Sequence record: NC_102531.1
Origin: a phage
Reading direction: 5' to 3' (one strand)
DNA length: 64,000 nucleotides
Shown here: piece by piece, positions 1 to 62,007 of the stretch
Position numbering within the stretch: the first letter of the stretch is position 1
Layout: every line of letters starts with the position of its first letter
The notes under the pieces: model-generated
The model's database searches: none
The model's input: only the letters and a program-made list of their open reading frames with translations
Told to the model about the DNA's origin: nothing
Made by a program: the position numbers and the translations under genes

Positions 1-867
1 CTCTTGGAATCCACCATCGTCGTGCCCCTCTATGGTCCATTCGCGCCCAGGATTAATATTGCAATCCCCGATAGGGATCTCTACACAGATTGCAGGGTAG
101 TCTGTCAATGTTTCCAGAAACTTAGAGCGGTAAGGTTGGTGTCCCATCACCACACGGCTCTCATCAGAGCTGGTATAACCTTTCAGGATGGTCATTTTCC
201 AACCATCTTTCTCGTAGCGATACTGCGCCTCAACCTTGTCACCTTCCAGCATCTTACTGGTCATAGGGTCGGTAACGGTAAACGGAAACTTTGCATAGCG
301 TAGGCATGACGCAATAGCAGTGCGATATTTCAGAACATGCTCTTTCTTAACATGGAACTGAACTTTTACCCCGTTGTGCTCTTCAGTCTTCCGCTCGCGG
401 ATCTTGGTAACGTTTGGGATACCCTGATCCAAGAACAACAGATATGTGCTTTCAACACCGTTGTGCACACTGATCACATCGAAAGTGTCCACCATGCTGA
501 ACGGGGCCTTTGAACCTACACCTTTATTACCTACCAGAGCGTTGCTGTTGCGCTTGGTTGACTCCCCGAGGTTCATGAAAGTGTTGCGGACCATCTCTTC
601 CGACATGCCCAATCCAACGTCCTGCACAAAGAAGTATGGTTCAAGGTCTGTAGGAGAGTGAATGATGATCGGTACATCACCCCGTCCAGACTCAACATGG
701 GAGTCCACAGCATTGAAGATTGGTTCACGGCAGCTTGCCAGCACCTTATCTTCGTAAATCCCTTTAATGATTAGCCCAAAAGTCTCTTTGTTCAGAGAAA
801 TTGAGCCCCTGGTGACCTCCATATTTCCGGTTAGTACTGCTTTAGTTTCATTACTGTTTACAATCAT
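1..867 (-). CDS. HSP90/MORC-like GHKL ATPase, N-terminal ~289 aa; gene continues beyond window start
   Basis: Absent from ORF track because truncated by the window edge. Minus-strand translation from ATG 867..865 (ATGA overlap with upstream stop) is open to position 1: MIVNSNETKAV... Bergerat-fold motifs REPIFNAVDS, VQDVGLGMSEEMV, GNKGVGSKAPF. Confidence 0.5.
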   Translation of the reverse strand, partial: MIVNSNETKAVLTGNMEVTRGSISLNKETFGLIIKGIYEDKVLASCREPIFNAVDSHVESGRGDVPIIIHSPTDLEPYFFVQDVGLGMSEEMVRNTFMNLGESTKRNSNALVGNKGVGSKAPFSMVDTFDVISVHNGVESTYLLFLDQGIPNVTKIRERKTEEHNGVKVQFHVKKEHVLKYRTAIASCLRYAKFPFTVTDPMTSKMLEGDKVEAQYRYEKDGWKMTILKGYTSSDESRVVMGHQPYRSKFLETLTDYPAICVEIPIGDCNINPGREWTIEGHDDGGFQE

Positions 868-1364
868 TTATTGCGCTCCTTGTAGTAGATATGACTCCCG
901 AATTGAGCTGTCCTCTGCATCTTTTTTGCCCATTTCGGTCGTACTTTGGTTGTATGGTAGTGTGTTGCTCCACCTGTTATGTCCATAGCCATGTATGCAA
1001 CATGGTTGTTATTATAGACCTTTAGAAGCATCTTTGCAAGACTTTTAGCGTGATCCCATGAATCTTTTTCTGTCACCTTAAAAGTTTTGCCGTGGTTTGT
1101 CCACGAAAACTGGTTAGGTTGGTAGACAATCTTTCTTATAGTGTCTGGGTATTTGGGGTGAGATTTCCTGTTTAGTGTGGCAAACCCTGATGCCAGCATA
1201 CCCATCGTGCCATCCCCTCTAGCCTCCCTGTAGATATTGCATGCCAGAATGTTTTCCTTAGTATCTGAGGGCTTGCAAGTATGATATACTTTTTGTTTTG
1301 GTGCTGCAACAACAGGCAGCGATAAAAGTGCGCTCAAAATAATAGCAAAGATCTTAATTTTCAC
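864..1364 (-). CDS. secreted cell-wall hydrolase, SleB/Hydrolase_2 family (candidate signal-peptide endolysin)
   Basis: GTG start with GGAG 5 nt upstream. N-terminal signal peptide MKIKIFAIILSALLSLPVVAAP; motifs ILACNIYREARGDG...ATLNRKSHPKYPDTIRKIVYQPNQFSW and GGATHYHT match the SleB-type fold. Confidence 0.6.
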   Translation of the reverse strand: MKIKIFAIILSALLSLPVVAAPKQKVYHTCKPSDTKENILACNIYREARGDGTMGMLASGFATLNRKSHPKYPDTIRKIVYQPNQFSWTNHGKTFKVTEKDSWDHAKSLAKMLLKVYNNNHVAYMAMDITGGATHYHTTKVRPKWAKKMQRTAQFGSHIYYKERNK

Positions 1365-1384
1365 AATGACTCCAAATAGAAAAT

Positions 1385-1400
1385 CCCCGCCGAAGCGGGG
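1385..1400 (-). terminator. rho-independent terminator, UUCG-tetraloop hairpin plus U-tract
   Basis: Plus strand ccccgccgaagcgggg preceded by an A-run; on the minus transcript this is ccccgcUUCGgcgggg followed by auuuucuauuu. Sits between the 1413 and 1364 genes. Confidence 0.5.
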
Positions 1401-1412
1401 AGGTCTTAGAAA

Positions 1413-1793
1413 TTAATCGTAGTGTGCCAAAATCTCTCCATCGTTGCAAGTTCCCTCTACAAAGTTATGAAGATTCATGCACTCATCTTGATAGAAGAAT
1501 TTACCGCTTTTCAGCCGTAGGCCAAACAACTCCGCATCTCCACGATGGCAAGCCTCTACAAGTTCATAGATTTCATACGGCAACTCTCCGTCGTCATGGA
1601 AGAATCCAGCCTTATCGTTGACATAAATGAAGAAATAATCACTGCTATCGCAAGCATCCAATATTTTAAACCAGATTTCATCTACATCTTTTTCTCGGAT
1701 ATCGATCACGCAAGTGGAGCTGCATTCGTACTCCTTCTCCGGCTCCTCGGTCAATACCACCAGGTAGTTTCCCCGCTTACCTACTTTAGCCAT
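1413..1793 (-). CDS. hypothetical protein (126 aa from internal ATG)
   Basis: ORF track 1413..1841; ATG at 1793 has SD GGGGGG 4-5 nt upstream and overlaps the stop of the AAA gene. No recognisable domain. Confidence 0.45.
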   Translation of the reverse strand: MAKVGKRGNYLVVLTEEPEKEYECSSTCVIDIREKDVDEIWFKILDACDSSDYFFIYVNDKAGFFHDDGELPYEIYELVEACHRGDAELFGLRLKSGKFFYQDECMNLHNFVEGTCNDGEILAHYD

Positions 1794-1803
1794 ACAACCC
1801 CCC

Positions 1804-2988
1804 TTAAGCTTTAGCCAAAATGGCGCTAAACTCTTCACCAAACTCTTTTACAATCTTCATCAGGTTTGGGTATGCTTTGATCAGCTGAGCAACAATCTTG
1901 TCACGCCCTTTACCGATAAGCAAGGCATTTCCTAAGGCATTAGGTTTCATCATCGCCATAAAGACTGAGAATACAAAATCTCGGTTCTCGTCCTTGAAGT
2001 TTTCCCAAAGGAAATCGAGGAAGTTTGCCACGCAGCTGACAAGATCTTCGTCTGAGATACTTGCATTTTCCATCATATTACGAATAGCGATACAACCTTC
2101 AGATCCAAGAATCCACAAAATGTCTGGCTGCTTAGGACCTACGTATTCTTTGCAGCCACCTGCCATAATCCGACCGATTTCCGGTAAATTGCGTTTCTTG
2201 GTGTGGTATGTCCAGATCTCTACCGCTGCAGTGTGACCAATAGCACCTTGCAGAAGAATACGGGACATAGCGTCAGAAATAATACCGCTGTCAAAATCGT
2301 GCAAGATGTCAGATGCAGCAACCCAAGATCGTGGTGTGGCAAAAGATGGACAATTAATCTCAGCCATAGCCTCATAATTATCAATAGCTGATGGAACTCT
2401 TTTCAGATACCCAATTACAGAGGAGTGAACCCCGTTGAGGAATGCGTAGTCCTCAATAAACACCTCTGCATTGCTTGTAACCTCTACAATGATAAAGCGG
2501 TTAGCCAGAGGGGCTTCGAGCGCCGAAAGAACCGCACCATCTGTAGAACGGTTACCCGCAGCCACAAAAACAGAACCCTTAGGGAATGCATAGGTGCCGC
2601 ACTTGTGGTCAAGCATAATTTGCATTGCAACCTTTTGCAGGTAGTTATCTGCATGAGTGAGCTCATCCAGAAAGATAATTCCGCTCCAGTCAGGATCCGC
2701 AGGCCAAAATTCTGGAATTGCAAACACTGTACGTGTAGTTCCATCCGCTTCTACAGGGATAGGTAGCCCAGATAAGTCGGCAGGATCTTTATCTGACAGT
2801 CGCACGTCAACAAGGTTGTCATCTCGCTCACCGAACATATTATCAGCGATCTGCTTCATCACCTGGCTTTTACCCACACCCATTGGTCCCAAAATTAGGA
2901 CAGATCGGCTATGACGTTGGGCAAACTGAATAATAGCTGGCAACTCACGGACAGTGATTTGACCACTTTCGAATACGTTTCTTGACAT
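1804..2988 (-). CDS. MoxR-like AAA+ ATPase (AAA_5/CbbQ-type)
   Basis: 394 aa. Walker A GPMGVGKS, Walker B IIFLDELTHA, single AAA core with C-terminal extension. Family assigned from motifs only. Confidence 0.65.
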   Translation of the reverse strand: MSRNVFESGQITVRELPAIIQFAQRHSRSVLILGPMGVGKSQVMKQIADNMFGERDDNLVDVRLSDKDPADLSGLPIPVEADGTTRTVFAIPEFWPADPDWSGIIFLDELTHADNYLQKVAMQIMLDHKCGTYAFPKGSVFVAAGNRSTDGAVLSALEAPLANRFIIVEVTSNAEVFIEDYAFLNGVHSSVIGYLKRVPSAIDNYEAMAEINCPSFATPRSWVAASDILHDFDSGIISDAMSRILLQGAIGHTAAVEIWTYHTKKRNLPEIGRIMAGGCKEYVGPKQPDILWILGSEGCIAIRNMMENASISDEDLVSCVANFLDFLWENFKDENRDFVFSVFMAMMKPNALGNALLIGKGRDKIVAQLIKAYPNLMKIVKEFGEEFSAILAKA

Positions 2989-3257
2989 TAGTAAAAGTCC
3001 TCTACTTGTGTGTAAGTGTTTTCAAAGTTTTCCAAAACAGATATCACATCGAATCTGTCAATATCATACGTGACTCTCCAGTTGTACGCAACCCTTTCTG
3101 CTGTTGCCTCTTCTGGCGCTAGTCGTCTGCTGGCATAAAAGAGTGTTGGAGTACACTTTCTTGCTTGCCCTCTAACTTTCCCATAATAATATCTGTGAAT
3201 ATCTTTGTCAAAATTTAACTCTTTTTCTGCACGAAGTTCATATTGCTGGTATAACAT
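2988..3257 (-). CDS. hypothetical protein (89 aa)
   Basis: ORF track; tightly packed in the minus-strand operon; no recognisable motif. Confidence 0.45.
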   Translation of the reverse strand: MLYQQYELRAEKELNFDKDIHRYYYGKVRGQARKCTPTLFYASRRLAPEEATAERVAYNWRVTYDIDRFDVISVLENFENTYTQVEDFY

Positions 3258-3301
3258 CTCTACTACTCCTTAAGCAGCATCCTTGCCGCCATTCCTGCCC
3301 A

Positions 3302-3682
3302 CTAAAATGCAGTCCGAATCCAGACAAGGTTCTTATCTGCCCAATCATAGAGGCAAGTCATTGCACTATTGAATTGCTCACACGGAGGATAATCTTCTTC
3401 CATCTGGCGCATAGCAGAGCCTTGTGGGTAAAGCTCCCGTGCTGCAAACCACGCATCGTAGTCATCCACGGTATCGAAGTAGTATACAACATCCTCCAAC
3501 TCAGGATCGAACTTTGAACTATCAGGATCCAGTTGTTCAGGGAACTTGGAGCGTAACTTGCCAGCCACAATACTTGCCAACTCGCTAACATGCTTATTGT
3601 CCCACTCCACTAGCTTCCCGTCTTCAGTGATGCGTCCTAACCACTGATCATGAAGGTCAACTGTTGTCTTCCACTGAGCCAT
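3302..3682 (-). CDS. hypothetical protein (126 aa)
   Basis: ORF track; start immediately downstream of the 3685 gene stop; acidic; no recognisable motif. Confidence 0.5.
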   Translation of the reverse strand: MAQWKTTVDLHDQWLGRITEDGKLVEWDNKHVSELASIVAGKLRSKFPEQLDPDSSKFDPELEDVVYYFDTVDDYDAWFAARELYPQGSAMRQMEEDYPPCEQFNSAMTCLYDWADKNLVWIRTAF

Positions 3683-3684
3683 TA

Positions 3685-3942
3685 TCAGTCCACCTCTTCT
3701 TCTCGTTGTAGTTCAAGATACCCGTAGGTCTGGACATCTTGAAGGGTGTGGAACTCCCCCTCTGCCGCTAAGGCACGAACAACTTGGCACAAAACCTTAT
3801 GAGGAACTTCATCCAAACCTAGATTCAGTGCAGGAAACACCTTATCTAAGTCAACAAAATAAACGAACTGTAGCTCACCAGCTTCAAAAGGTGTATCTTC
3901 AATAAACATCTTCTCGGCATTAGTCAAGATCTGCACTTTCAT
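3685..3942 (-). CDS. hypothetical protein (85 aa)
   Basis: ORF track; start overlaps stop of upstream gene at 3942. Confidence 0.45.
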   Translation of the reverse strand: MKVQILTNAEKMFIEDTPFEAGELQFVYFVDLDKVFPALNLGLDEVPHKVLCQVVRALAAEGEFHTLQDVQTYGYLELQREEEVD

Positions 3943-4298
3943 TATTCTACCTCCTCTTCTTTTTCTTCGGCATTAGTTTCATGGCTACTCCACTCGGGAG
4001 TTTCTACCTCGACAGTAAACTCACGCACTACACGGTAATTGCCCATGAAGCGCTCTACTTCGTCAAGGCTTATGGAGAGGCCATTGGCAACCAGGTCTGC
4101 AGCACCCTCTTCTACCAGGTAGTCCAGATTGGCTTCCAGAGCCTCAGGTTCAAACCCTGTCAATGCAATCAGATAACCTTCCCCTTCATCAGGGAGGACA
4201 ATACAGCCCAATTGATTTTCTTTAAAAAGGCAGTGACCATCATTATTGATTGGGTGTTCATTGCAGTAAATAGCTGCACGATAAGTAACTTTAGACAT
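3942..4298 (-). CDS. hypothetical acidic protein; start inside a 29-bp inverted repeat
   Basis: ORF track 3942..4319; ATG at 4298 has SD AAGGAGA 8 nt upstream, giving MSKVTYRA... First codons lie inside the repeat shared with 6137..6165. Confidence 0.45.
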   Translation of the reverse strand: MSKVTYRAAIYCNEHPINNDGHCLFKENQLGCIVLPDEGEGYLIALTGFEPEALEANLDYLVEEGAADLVANGLSISLDEVERFMGNYRVVREFTVEVETPEWSSHETNAEEKEEEVE

Positions 4299-4311
4299 CG
4301 GTAAGGTCTCC

Positions 4312-4590
4312 TTAGGCAATTGTCATTTTACATTCTTGAAATTTTAACACAAGACGGTGATTGTGTCTAGTGTCTAAAAAGATTTTTTCAACCATCAGGC
4401 ACACGGTATAACCGTCCATCTTGTTGACAACAAAATCTCCAGGATGAGGGAGGATGTCTCCCGGATTGGGGAAACATAGTCCACTCAGAAAGGCATCGTC
4501 AGTGGTGGACTTAATAGATTTCCACACACTGTCTGCCTGAACATGTTCGCCGACGTAATATACATTACCACATGCCTTCATCATAGTCAA
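4312..4590 (-). CDS. hypothetical protein (92 aa)
   Basis: ORF track; start overlaps stop of the 4587..5486 gene. Confidence 0.45.
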   Translation of the reverse strand: MTMMKACGNVYYVGEHVQADSVWKSIKSTTDDAFLSGLCFPNPGDILPHPGDFVVNKMDGYTVCLMVEKIFLDTRHNHRLVLKFQECKMTIA

Positions 4591-5486
4591 ACCCTCGCAT
4601 AAATTAAACTTGTATCAGTATACTTCTTTAATGGGTAAATATCCTGTCCATAGATGCAATCATTAAACACCTCATCTACCCAAAGGCTACACTTATATCC
4701 CATCATTTCTAAAACACCCATCTCTTCTTCGGTAAACTTATCACCGCTCTTGCAAGATGTCAATACCTCATTCTGAACTCTTGCTACCTCGAAGCGGTTA
4801 TTGGCAATATCGCTATTGGCGATCAAATACTCACCTAGAGGGTGTGCGGCATTAAAGATGCACAGTGGACGGCTGACGTAATAGTCTCCGGGTGTATAAA
4901 AATTGTTGAGGTCTTTCACTAGAACATTCTTATCAGTCACTTCATTTATAACATCATGCATATCGCACATCTTTATATGTTTGAGGATTCCATCCCCCAT
5001 CACAAAATAAAAACTTGCTGAGACACTTTCGGCATAGATCTTACTAGATCCGTTGTAGTTGTATTTTACTCGGATGCTAACGGGGGTTTTTCCTGTCGCG
5101 TTAGCCATCATCCAAAGAAATGGCAGCTCATACTTCTCCTCTGAGGAAACAAAAGGTGAGGTAGCCAGAGATCGAAAACCTCCAGAGAAGTTGAAAGTTA
5201 CAGAACCGCTCCGGCGGTATGATACCGCGTATTCTACTTTTATATCGACGTACCCATTGGAATAGGTGTGTCCTTCATTATCTAAATATGTCCACTTATC
5301 AGACCCAGATACCAATCTACGCTCAATAACCTTCATCACTACAGGAATTAGTGGGTTGGTACAAACCGCTTTTGAAGTAGCTTTATCATCTAAAGCCTCG
5401 TAAATTGCAGAAAGGATGTCCCCAGCTGAAAGATTGGTTGTTATGTCCTGTTTCCACCGCGTACTAAAACTGTTAAGATTTGCCAT
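4587..5486 (-). CDS. hypothetical protein (299 aa), first gene of minus-strand early operon
   Basis: ATG at 5486 with SD AGGAG 9 nt upstream and a sigma70-like promoter further upstream. No recognisable domain. Confidence 0.55.
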   Translation of the reverse strand: MANLNSFSTRWKQDITTNLSAGDILSAIYEALDDKATSKAVCTNPLIPVVMKVIERRLVSGSDKWTYLDNEGHTYSNGYVDIKVEYAVSYRRSGSVTFNFSGGFRSLATSPFVSSEEKYELPFLWMMANATGKTPVSIRVKYNYNGSSKIYAESVSASFYFVMGDGILKHIKMCDMHDVINEVTDKNVLVKDLNNFYTPGDYYVSRPLCIFNAAHPLGEYLIANSDIANNRFEVARVQNEVLTSCKSGDKFTEEEMGVLEMMGYKCSLWVDEVFNDCIYGQDIYPLKKYTDTSLIYARV

Positions 5487-5526
5487 AAGTAAGTGCTCCT
5501 ATGTTAGTTTTCTTTCGAATGGGTGC

Positions 5527-5555
5527 ACTATATTGTGGAGTTAGAGTAAAGTCAA
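5527..5555 (-). promoter_or_regulatory. sigma70-like promoter for minus-strand operon
   Basis: Minus-strand reading: TTGACT (5555..5550), 17-nt spacer, TATAGT (5532..5527), then leader with AGGAG before ATG 5486. Confidence 0.5.
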
Positions 5556-5568
5556 CACGTTTTTGATG

Positions 5569-5597
5569 TTGACATCTGTTGAGACAATTGATACGAT
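5569..5597 (+). promoter_or_regulatory. sigma70-like promoter for plus-strand operon
   Basis: TTGACA 5569..5574, 17-nt spacer, TACGAT 5592..5597. Lies inside the TTG-initiated N-terminal extension of ORF 5563. Confidence 0.45.
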
Positions 5598-5628
5598 TTC
5601 TTCACTTACAGAGCACGAGAGACGACTC

Positions 5629-6606
5629 ATGAATCTTGAAAAATATTATACACCAGAAGAGTTAGAGCGCTTGCTCAAAAAATATAGACGCAAACAGAAT
5701 AACGCACGGAAACGAGATATAGAGTTCGACCTGTCATGGGAAGAATACCTCCTATTTGGTAAAAAACTTTTAGGAGATGGAGTATGCGACTATACCCTTA
5801 TACCTTTTGACATGCACACAGATGAAAACGGGCTGGGAAATCCTTTCTACCCATCTCTGGAGCGGATAGATGATGAAGGTCCTTATGCGGTTGATAACTG
5901 TTGTGTGGTGGGATTGAGATGCAACTCTCTAAAGGACTGTCTGGTAGATAAAAAGACTGCAGTCTTGATTAAAGACGAAACTGATCGAAAAATTGTCCAG
6001 CAGATGATGCTCCACCTGAGCGAAGAGCGTATGGAGAAATTGAAAGGTGATTATACTTTTGAAGATTTCATCTTGCAATATGGAACGGAAGAGGATAAAC
6101 TAGCACTCTTTGACGAAGAAGAGGAGGAAGATATGCTACCGATGTCTAAAGTTACTTATCGTGCACCCAAGAAGCACATTTCCGACATTGTAAACGAGCC
6201 TATCACAGAAGAGATTGAAGAAATGACGCAACAGGTGCATGAAGAGGAAAAAGAGACTCAGGAGGTCGAAGAGGAGCTTACAGAAGAGGTTCCTGCACTA
6301 CCTGATGATGTTGAGATTGCCAAAGCTTACACTTTCTATTGTCAAACGTTCTACGATGTAGGTATGAAAGTTGATCTGTCGTTCAGCCAATTTAAGAGTT
6401 CGTATATTCGCAAATGCTGTGCTTTAACTGGTGAACGTCTTGAAGCTGGACTTAAACCTCTGTTGGTGACCGACTGGAATAAAGGTTTCACTAAAGGAAA
6501 CTTTATGGTAGTATCTCCAATTATGGAGAAAGCTATGACAGATCTTATGAAGACCACCCGCATGACAATGACCGAGTTGGCAGGTATTTTCAAACACGTT
6601 AAATAA
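5629..6606 (+). CDS. HNH-like (His-Me finger) domain protein with acidic linker
   Basis: ORF track 5563..6606 (TTG start); ATG 5629 lies downstream of the promoter. Motifs CDY...DMH...SLERID...NCCVVGLRCNSLK; second half starts MSKVTYRA inside the 29-bp repeat. Confidence 0.4.
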   Translation: MNLEKYYTPEELERLLKKYRRKQNNARKRDIEFDLSWEEYLLFGKKLLGDGVCDYTLIPFDMHTDENGLGNPFYPSLERIDDEGPYAVDNCCVVGLRCNSLKDCLVDKKTAVLIKDETDRKIVQQMMLHLSEERMEKLKGDYTFEDFILQYGTEEDKLALFDEEEEEDMLPMSKVTYRAPKKHISDIVNEPITEEIEEMTQQVHEEEKETQEVEEELTEEVPALPDDVEIAKAYTFYCQTFYDVGMKVDLSFSQFKSSYIRKCCALTGERLEAGLKPLLVTDWNKGFTKGNFMVVSPIMEKAMTDLMKTTRMTMTELAGIFKHVK

Positions 6607-6639
6607 TAACAGGGGCCAATGGCCCCTTCTGGAGTTTTA

Positions 6640-8100
6640 ATGGATAGCAGAAGTTCAGAAATCATTGCCTCGCAGAAAGATGATGCCCTGAGAATGTTGC
6701 AGGCTGCACGTATGTATCTCCTTGAAAAGCTGCCGTTCTATGGCACACTACTGTCAGGGTTGCAGTTCGTAGAAAACCACACATGGTGCTCCACCATGGC
6801 AACCGACCATAAACGCATCTATTACAGTCCTGAGTTCATTATGGGATTGGCTGATGAACGCAAGGCTATTCTTAAGGCTTCTCTAACTGACGAGCAGTTT
6901 GAGATGGCTGAAGTTTTCTATTCCCCAAAATCTGTGAAAGAGGTGGCCTTCCTTCTGTCACATGAGGTGGGGCATATTATCTGTGATCACCTAGTCCGTG
7001 GTAAAAGCTTTGAGCCGGAACTGTTCAATATTGCTTGTGATCACGTTATCAACACAGGCCTTGTGGTTGACTTTAGCAAACCTCCTTGTGTTTTCTTCCC
7101 GAAGGGGAAAAGCACTACGTTCGTGAAAGGTAAGCCTTTTGGCTTCTTAGCCAGCTGCTACTGCGACATGAAGTTTCATGGATGGATTGCTGAGAACGTT
7201 TATGCAGTTCTTGATAAGCAAAGAGATCAGAATAACGGTAAAAGTAAGAACGGTAAAGGTGAGAACTCTCAAAGTGATAAGCGACAAACCGATGATCACA
7301 TGAGTGGGAACGGTGGCACCAATGATAATCTTGGAAAGGCTATGGGGTATGATCAGCCACAACCTGTAATCAGCCAATCTGATAAAGATCAGGCCATGCA
7401 GGACTCTGGTGATATGCTGGAGGCAGCAATGCAAGCGTCCGGAGGCCGTTGCCCTGAGGCGGTGCGTGAGTTTGTCAAGAACAGAGGTAAACCTGTAATC
7501 AACTATATAGACATCATTAAGCAACGCATGTTGTCTAAAAGAAAGGCCGAACTGACCTACAGAAAACCTGGTCGCCGATCTGGGTCTTTGACCAGCACAA
7601 TGCGAAAAGTTGGGGCTATAAACAAGAACCAGCACGTTATTGTTCCTGGTCGTAATCCGGAAAACACTATAGATATTGTGGTGGCTTTAGACGTTTCTGG
7701 CTCGATCTCTCAAAGAACTTTAAAGAAAATGTTCAATGAAATCACCGGATTGTGCAATCTGTATAAAGAGTTTAAGGTTACAATGTTCTGTTGGTCAACT
7801 GAGGTTGGAGAGGTTAAAGTATACACTCGCGGCAACATAGACGAGATGATCAACTATGAGGTCCACTCAACATGGGGCACAACAGCTGCTTGCGTGTTCG
7901 AGTATCTGGATGCCAACATACCTAATGCAAAAGATGTCATCGTCCTGACCGACCTATACTTTGAGCATAACTTTGAACAAAAGGTTGTTGACAACAAGTG
8001 GAAAAAGTACGATACTCTATGGGTCCTCACTGAGGGGTATAATAAAAATTATATCCCGAGCTTTGGGAAAACTGTGGAATTAATCGAGTACGCTAAGTAA
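6640..8100 (+). CDS. vWA-domain protein with N-terminal HExxH putative metallopeptidase domain (DUF2201-like)
   Basis: ORF track 6619..8100; ATG 6640 has SD GGAG 5 nt upstream. N-terminal PFYG...TMATDH...LSHEVGHIICDH...FNIACDHVIN; C-terminal MIDAS-like DVSGSIS. Long Asn/Gly/Ser/Asp-rich linker. Confidence 0.6.
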   Translation: MDSRSSEIIASQKDDALRMLQAARMYLLEKLPFYGTLLSGLQFVENHTWCSTMATDHKRIYYSPEFIMGLADERKAILKASLTDEQFEMAEVFYSPKSVKEVAFLLSHEVGHIICDHLVRGKSFEPELFNIACDHVINTGLVVDFSKPPCVFFPKGKSTTFVKGKPFGFLASCYCDMKFHGWIAENVYAVLDKQRDQNNGKSKNGKGENSQSDKRQTDDHMSGNGGTNDNLGKAMGYDQPQPVISQSDKDQAMQDSGDMLEAAMQASGGRCPEAVREFVKNRGKPVINYIDIIKQRMLSKRKAELTYRKPGRRSGSLTSTMRKVGAINKNQHVIVPGRNPENTIDIVVALDVSGSISQRTLKKMFNEITGLCNLYKEFKVTMFCWSTEVGEVKVYTRGNIDEMINYEVHSTWGTTAACVFEYLDANIPNAKDVIVLTDLYFEHNFEQKVVDNKWKKYDTLWVLTEGYNKNYIPSFGKTVELIEYAK

Positions 8101-8115
8101 GAGAGGAGGTTATTT

Positions 8116-8379
8116 ATGGCAACAGAGTTAAAATTTGCATCAAACCGTAAAACTAAGAAGTATCTGTCCTCAGTAGCTCCAGGCACTGTGGTGATGTTTG
8201 TTGATGAACTTGGGGATGTGAATACAGCACTTGTTGTAAAATCACATCCTGCAAACATATATGTTGGGGTATTTGACCTGTTCAGAAAGGTGTTTGTAGA
8301 ACTACCTCACAGTTTGGTTGTTACAGAAATGGATGCCTGCATAGAAATTCTTGGCGAAGTTATGGTGGAGGAACAATAA
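8116..8379 (+). CDS. small protein, paralog 1 of a tandem four-gene family
   Basis: 87 aa; SD GAGGAGG upstream; shares MAT..F.S..K.KK...GTVV...VK...FDL...LP...VTE.D..I.ILGE pattern with the next gene. Confidence 0.6.
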   Translation: MATELKFASNRKTKKYLSSVAPGTVVMFVDELGDVNTALVVKSHPANIYVGVFDLFRKVFVELPHSLVVTEMDACIEILGEVMVEEQ

Positions 8380-8642
8380 TGGCTACCAGCATTGTATTCA
8401 ATTCTAAGGTGAAGAACAAAAAGCGTGCAGACAGCTTTCCGTGTGGGACCGTGGTAAGTTGCGACGGAGACGGCATTCAAAACATAGTTATGATTGTCAA
8501 AACAGGAGAACATTGTGTGTGGGGGTTCGATTTAGAAAATAATGAGTTGTACGATCTGCCACCAAACATGAAAGTTACAGAGCTTGACACCAAAATTACC
8601 ATCCTTGGAGAGACAAGCTATTCAAAAGAAGGAGGAGAATAA
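8379..8642 (+). CDS. small protein, paralog 2 of tandem family
   Basis: 87 aa; TAATG stop/start overlap with paralog 1; SD GGAGGAA upstream. Confidence 0.6.
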   Translation: MATSIVFNSKVKNKKRADSFPCGTVVSCDGDGIQNIVMIVKTGEHCVWGFDLENNELYDLPPNMKVTELDTKITILGETSYSKEGGE

Positions 8643-8905
8643 TGACCACAAAAATCACTATCGCAGAACCGAAAGCTAACACTCAACCTATCGAAAAGTT
8701 TAAGTGCGGTGAGGTGGTAACATTCACACCAGATAATGAAGATGCTAAGATTTTCGCAATGGTCACAGCTGAGTGGATGTGTGACAACACCACACAGGTT
8801 CTGCGTTTTGACACCTATCTTACCGATGAAATCAGGAACGACAAGATTGTGACTGGTGTGGATACTGAGATTGTTTTCTACAAGAGCTTTTTAGAGGGTT
8901 TCTGA
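8642..8905 (+). CDS. small protein, paralog 3 of tandem family (more diverged)
   Basis: 87 aa; TAATG overlap; KFKCGEVVTF and RFDTYLTDEI...VTGVDTEIVF align to paralogs 1 and 2. Confidence 0.55.
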   Translation: MTTKITIAEPKANTQPIEKFKCGEVVTFTPDNEDAKIFAMVTAEWMCDNTTQVLRFDTYLTDEIRNDKIVTGVDTEIVFYKSFLEGF

Positions 8906-8906
8906 T

Positions 8907-9140
8907 ATGGCAAAAATTCGTAAATTATCTAGTAATCAGGTTGTGAAAGACTTTGAATCTGGAGAGATTCTTTATGTTCGTGATGCAGATGACGAAGGTG
9001 AAGATCTCGTTATGTTGGTGGGGCACGCTGAGGACGGATGCATCCAAGCTGTTTTTCTTGAAACAGCTATGGTGCACTGGATAGAGCTGGACCTGAAAGC
9101 ACGAAAACCTAAAGCAGAAATCCTGATTTACGAAGATTAA
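8907..9140 (+). CDS. small protein, paralog 4 of tandem family (diverged, 77 aa)
   Basis: Starts 2 nt after paralog 3; GEILYV...LVMLVGH...AVFLE...WIELDLK follows the same pattern. Confidence 0.45.
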   Translation: MAKIRKLSSNQVVKDFESGEILYVRDADDEGEDLVMLVGHAEDGCIQAVFLETAMVHWIELDLKARKPKAEILIYED

Positions 9141-61903: not shown

Positions 61904-61910
61904 AAAAAGG

Positions 61911-62007
61911 TGCTAGGTGATGGAATCGAACCACCTATGTATTCAACGACTACCTCGTCTATTTTCAGGATTAAAAATCCTCGCCCTTGCCAAAGGGCTT
62001 ACCTAGC
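61911..62007 (-). tRNA. atypical 97-nt tRNA-like element (perfect acceptor and T arm, expanded core; identity unresolved, possibly anticodon TTT)
   Basis: Acceptor GCTAGGT/ACCTAGC 7/7, D-arm GCCC-TTTGGCAA-GGGC, T-arm GGTGG-TTCGATT-CCATC; only plausible anticodon loop is TTTTTAA, followed by a 30-nt region with hairpin GACGA-GGTAG-TCGTT. No CCA. Confidence 0.35.

Follow-up and report, generated by a model that had tools for sequence, protein, structure and literature searches.

Two probably unrelated neighbours, rIIA and a MoxR-vWA gene pair, at one locus of an rV5-like coliphage

Do three genes that lie within 8 kb of one another in a phage genome, and that each encode a protein of a kind associated with nucleoside triphosphate (NTP)-driven machines or their partners, form a single system, or are they neighbours with separate functions? 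We asked this of positions 1-8100 of a 64,000-nucleotide (nt) stretch of NC_102531.1 (the whole stretch is hereafter the window), in which a sequence-only reading had recognised a GHKL ATPase (1-867, minus strand), a MoxR-type AAA+ ATPase (1804-2988, minus strand) and a protein combining an N-terminal HExxH domain with a von Willebrand factor A (vWA) domain (6640-8100, plus strand), and had proposed that the three form one module. [quoted passage not shown] The three-component module was not supported, however, as the first gene is rIIA, which pairs with rIIB and is rarely found near the other two beyond the rV5-like clade. We consider it likely that the locus holds, as neighbours, two unrelated and previously described functions: rIIA, and a two-component MoxR-vWA AAA+ machine.

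At the left edge of the window, translation is stop-free from an ATG at 867-865 on the minus strand and continues past the window start; the truncated look of this gene arises because the window edge cuts it, and it is not a pseudogene. The 289 codons present matched Pfam HATPase_c_3 (4.5e-9; 36.9 bits against a cut-off of 25), PHROG 612 'RIIA' over residues 1-278 (3.5e-100) and five other RIIA PHROGs, and the Bergerat-fold motifs are intact (EPIFNAVD at 703-726, DVGLG at 607-621 and GNKGVG at 514-531). Judged from its sequence, the product is the N-terminal part of rIIA with a predicted GHKL ATP-binding domain. The rV5 genome paper already lists gene 1 as rIIA with HATPase_c_3 (Kropinski et al. 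2013, PMC3606486), and rIIA has been described as a GHKL protein (Iyer et al. 2021, PMC7824862). The full-length gene measures 1983 nt in phage LL12, and in phage nimi (99.4% identical) rIIB begins 10 nt past rIIA, a position that lies off the window here; rIIB likewise adjoins rIIA in two further loci, L008 and L009. Knock-down of RIIA or RIIB in phages EdH4 and N4 lowers the efficiency of plating only on cells with lambda RexAB (Adler et al. 2025, PMC11879866). EdH4 is an rV5-like phage with 98.5% identity over 1-8100, which means that the function of rIIA has already been tested in a near-identical phage, and its phenotype is explained by RIIA/RIIB acting against RexAB with no need for the other two genes. 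In the window too, rIIA would act with rIIB and enable the phage to plate on cells with the lambda RexAB exclusion system. T4 rIIA/rIIB are alike in the N-terminal GHKL domain, the adjacent rIIB and the anti-RexAB role (reported for the rV5-like EdH4), but sequence identity is low (<40% across the tested rII systems, PMC11879866), and in the window, unlike in T4, a SleB-like cell-wall hydrolase gene overlaps the rIIA start. The stop of that gene (864-1364, minus strand; rV5 gene 2; Pfam Hydrolase_2, 2.1e-19) overlaps the rIIA start codon by 4 nt (864-867), and as a SleB-like gene also lies directly upstream of rIIA in L009, a relative at 53% identity, hydrolase, rIIA and rIIB form a conserved string. 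The hydrolase is outside the MoxR-vWA module.

The second gene encodes the 394-residue ATPase (1804-2988, minus strand; rV5 gene 4), with a Walker A motif (GVGKS, 2866-2880) and a Walker B motif (DE, 2662-2667). Across an alignment of 19 sequences, G37xGKS41, D108E109, N146R147 (sensor 1), R164 and R220 are invariant; R164 and R220 were assigned as arginine finger and sensor 2 by position. A search of the PDB with the single sequence gave only P-loop-level matches to Clp and p97. AAA_3 and AAA_5 are both present in homologues with about 34% identity (E 1e-44), and the best PDB match of the 19-sequence family profile was midasin (5.2e-11). An AlphaFold2 model with a predicted local distance difference test (pLDDT) score of 82.4 returned NorQ and CbbQ2 at Foldseek ranks 1-12 (E 2.6e-7 to 4e-6; template-modelling score, by target, at most 0.64). 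By homologues, profile and model, the product is best described as a MoxR-class AAA+ ATPase. Strands 2 and 3 of the model are separated by an insert (residues 64-101, about 38 in all) in which D71, G74, P92, P96 and P99 are conserved, and a short hairpin (129-134) comes ahead of strand 4; by their position, these would fit the helix-2-insert/pre-sensor-1 hairpin clade. NorQ and CbbQ are the best structural matches to the model but share only 16-22% sequence identity with the ATPase, which differs from them in having an additional C-terminal stretch of about 130 helical residues. The structural neighbours of the ATPase, together with its fixed vWA partner, rule out a role in replication or packaging or one of topoisomerase type.

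That partner is the 486-residue product of the third gene (6640-8100, plus strand; rV5 gene 12), whose ATG at 6640 is preceded by a GGAG ribosome-binding site. It matched Pfam DUF2201_N (5.7e-28; 98.7 bits against 23.2) and DUF2201 (7.1e-11; 42.7 bits against 26.4), and has an N-terminal zincin-like domain joined through a disordered linker (residues 203-228) to a vWA domain at the C-terminus. The sequence HEVGHIICDH (HExxHxxxxH) is encoded at 6961-6990, and none of H108, E109, H112 and H117 varies in an alignment of 20 sequences whose identity goes down to 22%. The MIDAS is complete (DVSGS at 7690-7704, T at 7879-7881 and D at 7951-7953), and its DxSxS-T-D pattern is likewise invariant in the 20-sequence alignment. 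A single-sequence search of the PDB gave no match and a profile search was needed; structural matches to the vWA fold include the NorD vWA domain out of the NorQ complex. For the N-terminal domain, no solved structure was among the matches listed, and there were weak profile matches to MJ1213/minigluzincin and to M48-type proteases. We accordingly describe this domain as a zincin-like predicted metallopeptidase. The DUF2201 zincin-vWA family is large (13,793 clusters at 50% identity with E at or below 1e-30), and we found no structure or assay of a DUF2201 peptidase domain in the literature. Set against rV5 and the roughly 125 sequenced Vequintavirus genomes (PMC3606486), the window differs from the rV5 record in that the latter splits gene 12 into ORFs of 441 and 81 residues, whereas the window, like LL12, has a single 486-residue ORF with a complete vWA domain; a frameshift in the rV5 record probably cuts the vWA domain short. 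Immediately 5' of the vWA gene, a perfect GC-rich palindrome, AGGGGCCAATGGCCCCT (6611-6627), followed by a weak T-run, lies between the stop of the preceding Srd-like gene and the vWA start, and may be an attenuator or RNA-processing site of the rightward unit. Directly 3' of the gene are four tandem ORFs of 77-87 residues (8116-9140, plus strand), the first two of which are paralogues (38% identical) and the remaining two more distant.

The case for a partnership between ATPase and vWA protein comes from their gene order across lineages. We scanned 80 IMG/VR loci, retrieved by similarity to the ATPase, with both protein profiles and with rIIA/rIIB sequences, and counted adjacency over the 57 loci that had at least 1.5 kb downstream of the ATPase gene. 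The vWA gene was directly downstream on the same strand in 55 of the 57, mostly with gaps below 160 nt (four were of about 270-550 nt), and the two exceptions were rV5-like loci (97% and 53% identity) with a split, divergent layout. The pair is also adjacent in a Certrevirus-like contig (L010), in the jumbo phage Eneladusvirus Yen9-04 and in Sulfurivermis-like Gammaproteobacteria, and in three Schitoviridae subfamilies the genes are adjacent or parted by an HNH gene only. In N4-like phages, gp24 and gp25 are two of 14 core genes, and in N4 they are middle genes (PMC4193335). On the strength of this gene order, the ATPase and vWA protein genes are a conserved two-gene module encoding predicted partners; the MoxR-vWA partnership that the sequence-only reading had expected is borne out by adjacency in these viral and bacterial lineages. 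Besides a large environmental phage lineage, the module recurs in N4-like (as core genes), rV5-like, Certrevirus-like and jumbo phages.

The layout in the window is a departure from this pattern. The two genes lie on opposite strands, 3.6 kb apart across a divergent promoter region from which the ATPase gene is 2.5 kb and the vWA gene 1.1 kb away, and such a split was seen only in the rV5-like clade. The relative L009 is arranged, in its own orientation, with the Srd-like gene and then the vWA gene leaving the divergent region on one side, and gp6, the MoxR gene and, further on, the SleB-like gene, rIIA and rIIB on the other. As the pair is adjacent in the Certrevirus-like contig and the split is kept in L009, the split is a derived rearrangement of the rV5-like clade. 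The shared promoter region could preserve co-expression of the separated genes. Several features recur around the pair elsewhere. In unrelated phages (L002/L003, L006, L007, L093 and L094), the few kb downstream of it contain genes for thymidylate synthase (ThyA/ThyX) and/or a dCMP/dCTP deaminase, and DprA-like genes are near it in UE-M3 and Yen9-04. In three Sulfurivermis-like bacterial loci (L088, L089 and L091, at about 1-7250), htpG, hsp15 and a gene for thioredoxin are found 3-4 kb upstream of the AAA_5-DUF2201 pair; HtpG is an HSP90 and GHKL ATPase, and its presence echoes the proposed trio in this one bacterial lineage only.

Described systems suggest how the pair might work. By analogy with NorQ/NorD and CbbQ/CbbO, the MoxR-class ATPase would form a ring or hexamer, and the vWA domain of the DUF2201 protein would dock on or plug that ring, its MIDAS-bound metal gripping an acidic residue of a target protein; ATP hydrolysis would then be transmitted to the target and remodel it, and the fused HExxH domain would be placed to cleave it. 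In the NorQ/NorD complex, the NorD vWA domain inserts a 'finger' into the pore of NorQ and binds the target through its MIDAS (PMC9976466, PMC13036017). For the phage pair, ring formation, docking and proteolysis are inferred, as are co-expression and timing. NorQ/NorD and CbbQ/CbbO share with the pair a vWA domain with a MIDAS and serve as the template for docking and force transmission, but the N-domains of NorD and CbbO are not zincin-like HExxH domains, and their targets, cNOR and Rubisco, are absent from the phage. N4 gp24/gp25 are likewise an AAA+ ATPase and a DUF2201 zincin-vWA protein; they are 22-28% identical to the window proteins and are encoded by non-structural middle genes; in N4-like phages, however, these genes are adjacent and co-directional, sometimes with an HNH gene between them. 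The pair of group 2.2 jumbo phages (Iyer, Anantharaman, Krishnan, Burroughs, Aravind 2021, PMC7824862) has the same two-protein architecture and was described as a chaperone and cochaperone with an N-terminal metallopeptidase on the vWA protein; we confirmed the Yen9-04 example here. It differs in that a virion-assembly role was proposed for it, whereas the context in the window is non-structural.

The nature of the target is the point on which readings of the pair diverge. On balance, a non-virion target, whether a phage replication or nucleotide-metabolism protein or a host protein, seems somewhat the better prospect, because the context of the pair is non-structural in rV5-like and N4-like phages, because gp4 and gp12 are without a mass spectrometry (MS) mark in the rV5 table and because free-living bacteria carry the pair. 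The table concerned is the rV5 gene table (supplementary Table S3), in which gp4 and gp12 are not among the proteins with MS evidence (PMC3606486). Within this range, the pair might be an early- or middle-expressed, ATP-driven adaptor-protease that seizes an acidic site on a host protein via the MIDAS and then remodels or cuts this protein, for host takeover or counter-defence. Candidate targets would then be a defence protein or some component of the machinery for transcription or degradation. In the rV5-like clade, the vWA gene has come to lie in an apparent operon with the Srd-like gene, and the ATPase gene has stayed on the opposite arm of the shared promoter region. As a specific proposal, we regard the adaptor-protease role against a host protein as unlikely.

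Several points weigh against our interpretation of the locus as rIIA beside an unrelated MoxR-vWA machine. The ATPase alone falls under the Pfam AAA_5 cut-off (16.7 against 22 bits) with AAA_3 unlisted, and the MoxR label therefore needed the deeper tests by profile and model. The insert at the helix-2-insert position is modelled at pLDDT below 50, so that this clade feature is read from position only. At 50% identity or more, 77 of the 80 IMG/VR loci fall into a single lineage, so that the independent support from adjacency amounts to about six lineages rather than 55. The pair and rIIA/rIIB share a non-structural module in two unrelated phage families, an arrangement that is compatible with a link between them and is no evidence of one. 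The literature on DUF2201, on phage MoxR-vWA pairs, on N4 gp24/gp25 and on Vequintavirinae transcription yielded no experiment on the pair in any phage. Lastly, two points speak for a part in virion assembly: Iyer et al. 2021 proposed it for the jumbo-phage pair (PMC7824862), and the Yen9-04 pair comes after genes for tail-tube, head-completion and virion proteins that share its strand.

Under that alternative, the MoxR-vWA pair would be a chaperone that folds or proteolytically matures structural proteins. A role of this kind has been shown for tail development in Acidianus two-tailed virus, and a chaperone need not turn up in the virion proteome. In rV5-like phages, however, the pair genes stand beside rIIA/B, Srd and small early-type genes with candidate sigma70-like promoters, far from a late structural block that has its own T4-late-like motif; N4 gp24/gp25 are middle genes beside RNAP2, replication and nucleotide-metabolism genes; and the same pair occurs in free-living bacteria. 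Taken together, these contexts make an assembly chaperone rather improbable for the rV5-like pair.

We hold in similarly low regard the possibility that the pair inserts a metal cofactor into, or otherwise activates, a phage or host metalloenzyme in the manner of NorQ/NorD, CbbQ/CbbO or CobS/CobT, with the HExxH site handling metal rather than carrying out proteolysis. The structures closest to the two proteins, NorQ and CbbQ for the ATPase and the NorD vWA domain for its partner, do point in this direction, as does the presence of thymidylate synthase and/or dCMP/dCTP deaminase genes a few kb from the pair in L002/L003, UE-M3, V13, YH30 and Yen9-04. This neighbourhood evidence is loose, however, and may only reflect a shared replication module; no such metabolic enzyme lies near the pair in the window, and the DUF2201 N-terminal domain is unrelated to the NorD and CbbO N-domains as far as these were compared.

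The preferred reading, of rIIA and the MoxR-vWA pair as separate functions, has finally to be set against the trio itself, in which rIIA, the MoxR ATPase and the vWA/zincin protein would make up one NTP-driven module, such as a membrane-located machine for counter-defence or exclusion. The two units that carry the three genes, all within 8 kb, diverge from a single promoter region; L009, the relative at 53% identity, keeps these genes in synteny; and N4-like phages have rIIA/rIIB in a middle-gene module that also contains the pair, at a distance of 4-11 kb. Nevertheless, rIIA is paired with its neighbour rIIB, and the phenotype published for it calls for no further gene (PMC11879866). Of 25 IMG/VR loci in which 5 kb or more was available on each side, only two, both rV5-like, had an rII gene nearby. 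Distances of 10 kb or less between the pair and an rII gene were confined to rV5-like loci and, among the three N4-like phages examined, to UE-M3 and YH30 (the distance in V13 is 11.3 kb), and no rII gene was near the pair in Yen9-04, L002/L003, L010 or bacteria. Moreover, helicase, DNA polymerase, ThyX and deaminase genes part the pair from rII in N4-like phages. T4-like phages carry rIIA/rIIB and are not known to carry the pair. Co-occurrence in related phages, on which the sequence-only reading had staked the module, was thus found for the pair and not for the trio. The trio is also without a PADLOC match: PADLOC returned nothing for the vWA protein and only noise (E > 1e-3) for the others, and NCBIfam and PADLOC together gave no significant family for the five proteins tested. 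The vWA-MoxR ternary conflict systems (Kaur et al. 2020, PMC7159879) resemble the pair in their core of MoxR and vWA proteins and in the peptidase domains occasionally fused to vWA, but the window pair is phage-encoded, lacks a VMAP, any other third component and an effector array, and is without a match in PADLOC. A single three-part machine is, on these grounds, very improbable, and cooperation of the pair with rIIA/rIIB, which would fit their shared module in rV5-like and N4-like phages, is similarly improbable.

By megablast, positions 1-8100 match 125 phage records at 90% identity or more, 113 of them with a single match that covers at least 80% of the query at 90-99.6% identity, the closest being phages naswa and C12 (99.6%). 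All are Vequintavirus coliphages apart from 16 that are labelled Campylobacter phage, and from these matches the stretch of NC_102531.1 is assigned to Vequintavirus (rV5-like coliphages). The 16 exceptions (MG0656xx, host C. jejuni) are 98-99.6% identical to Escherichia coli Vequintaviruses, which suggests mislabelled hosts or contaminating coliphages. The LL12 annotation maps one-to-one onto the window ORFs, and the three proteins in question correspond to rV5 genes 1 (rIIA), 4 (ATPase) and 12 (vWA protein), all annotated before. Starting from a 142-nt divergent intergenic region, genes 10 to 1 point to the left, and gene 11 and those after it to the right.

Within this region, the back-to-back promoters that the sequence-only reading had placed at 5527-5597 coincide with two candidate sigma70-like consensus matches, each with 10 of 12 positions: TTGACT-17-TATAGT on the minus strand (5555 to 5527) and TTGACA-17-TG-TACGAT on the plus strand (5569 to 5597). 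Their -35 boxes are the arms of a palindrome (5551-5573). Sigma70-like sites over 1-9000 are no commoner than chance (21 found against 17 +/- 4.7 in shuffled sequence), so that position is the sole argument for these promoter candidates; the rV5 authors predicted the same divergent promoters (Kropinski et al. 2013, PMC3606486). We found no timing data on rV5-like transcription in the literature, and Rfam showed no RNA family in 1-9000.

On the leftward unit, six minus-strand genes (2988-5486; rV5 genes 5-10) separate the promoter region from the ATPase gene; by the ORFs and the LL12 annotation, they occupy 2988-3257, 3302-3682, 3685-3942, 3942-4298, 4312-4584 and 4587-5486. Among these, only gp6 is kept in L009, directly upstream of the ATPase gene. 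The small genes around the three main ones had been described as lacking recognisable domains, and this stands for gp3 and gp5-gp10, which have no Pfam domain (those tested), but not for the SleB-like gene or for the Srd-like gene that opens the rightward arm (5629-6606, plus strand; rV5 gene 11, annotated as an anti-sigma factor). The latter matched PHROG 4592 'decoy of host sigma70' (3e-15), PHROG 1400 'Srd' (2.2e-10) and PHROG 3118, and gp11 was called an Srd homologue in the rV5 paper (PMC3606486). In L009 an Srd-like protein with 39% identity is encoded directly upstream of the vWA gene, and the two genes look like a conserved operon in the rV5-like clade. The Srd-like gene also matches HNH and endonuclease VII PHROGs and has an acidic, low-complexity middle region.

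Some public labels at this locus did not stand up. For gp12, the GenBank and PHROG labels 'HNH endonuclease', 'anti-sigma factor' and 'DNA repair ATPase' were rejected as lacking Pfam support, as was 'alpha 1-3 fucosyltransferase' for gp10; the label 'ATPase' for the 89-residue gp5, which has no Pfam match, was rejected as well, its sole match being PHROG 13164, itself so labelled. Misleading labels for gp12, gp10 and gp5 are spreading through public records and PHROG 1314 and 13164. The rV5 paper of 2013, Iyer 2021 and Adler 2025 have between them already reported the genes and their domains, the promoter region and the MoxR/peptidase-vWA pairing. Both rV5-like coliphages and N4 are amenable to CRISPRi-ART, so that the role of the widespread MoxR/zincin-vWA pair of phages and bacteria can be tested directly.

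Far from the locus, within a tRNA cluster of the window, a tRNA-like gene of 97-99 nt lies at 61909-62007 on the minus strand; ARAGORN gives it a four-base anticodon (atcc) and no amino-acid assignment, and its Rfam tRNA score of 35.5 bits is just over the threshold.

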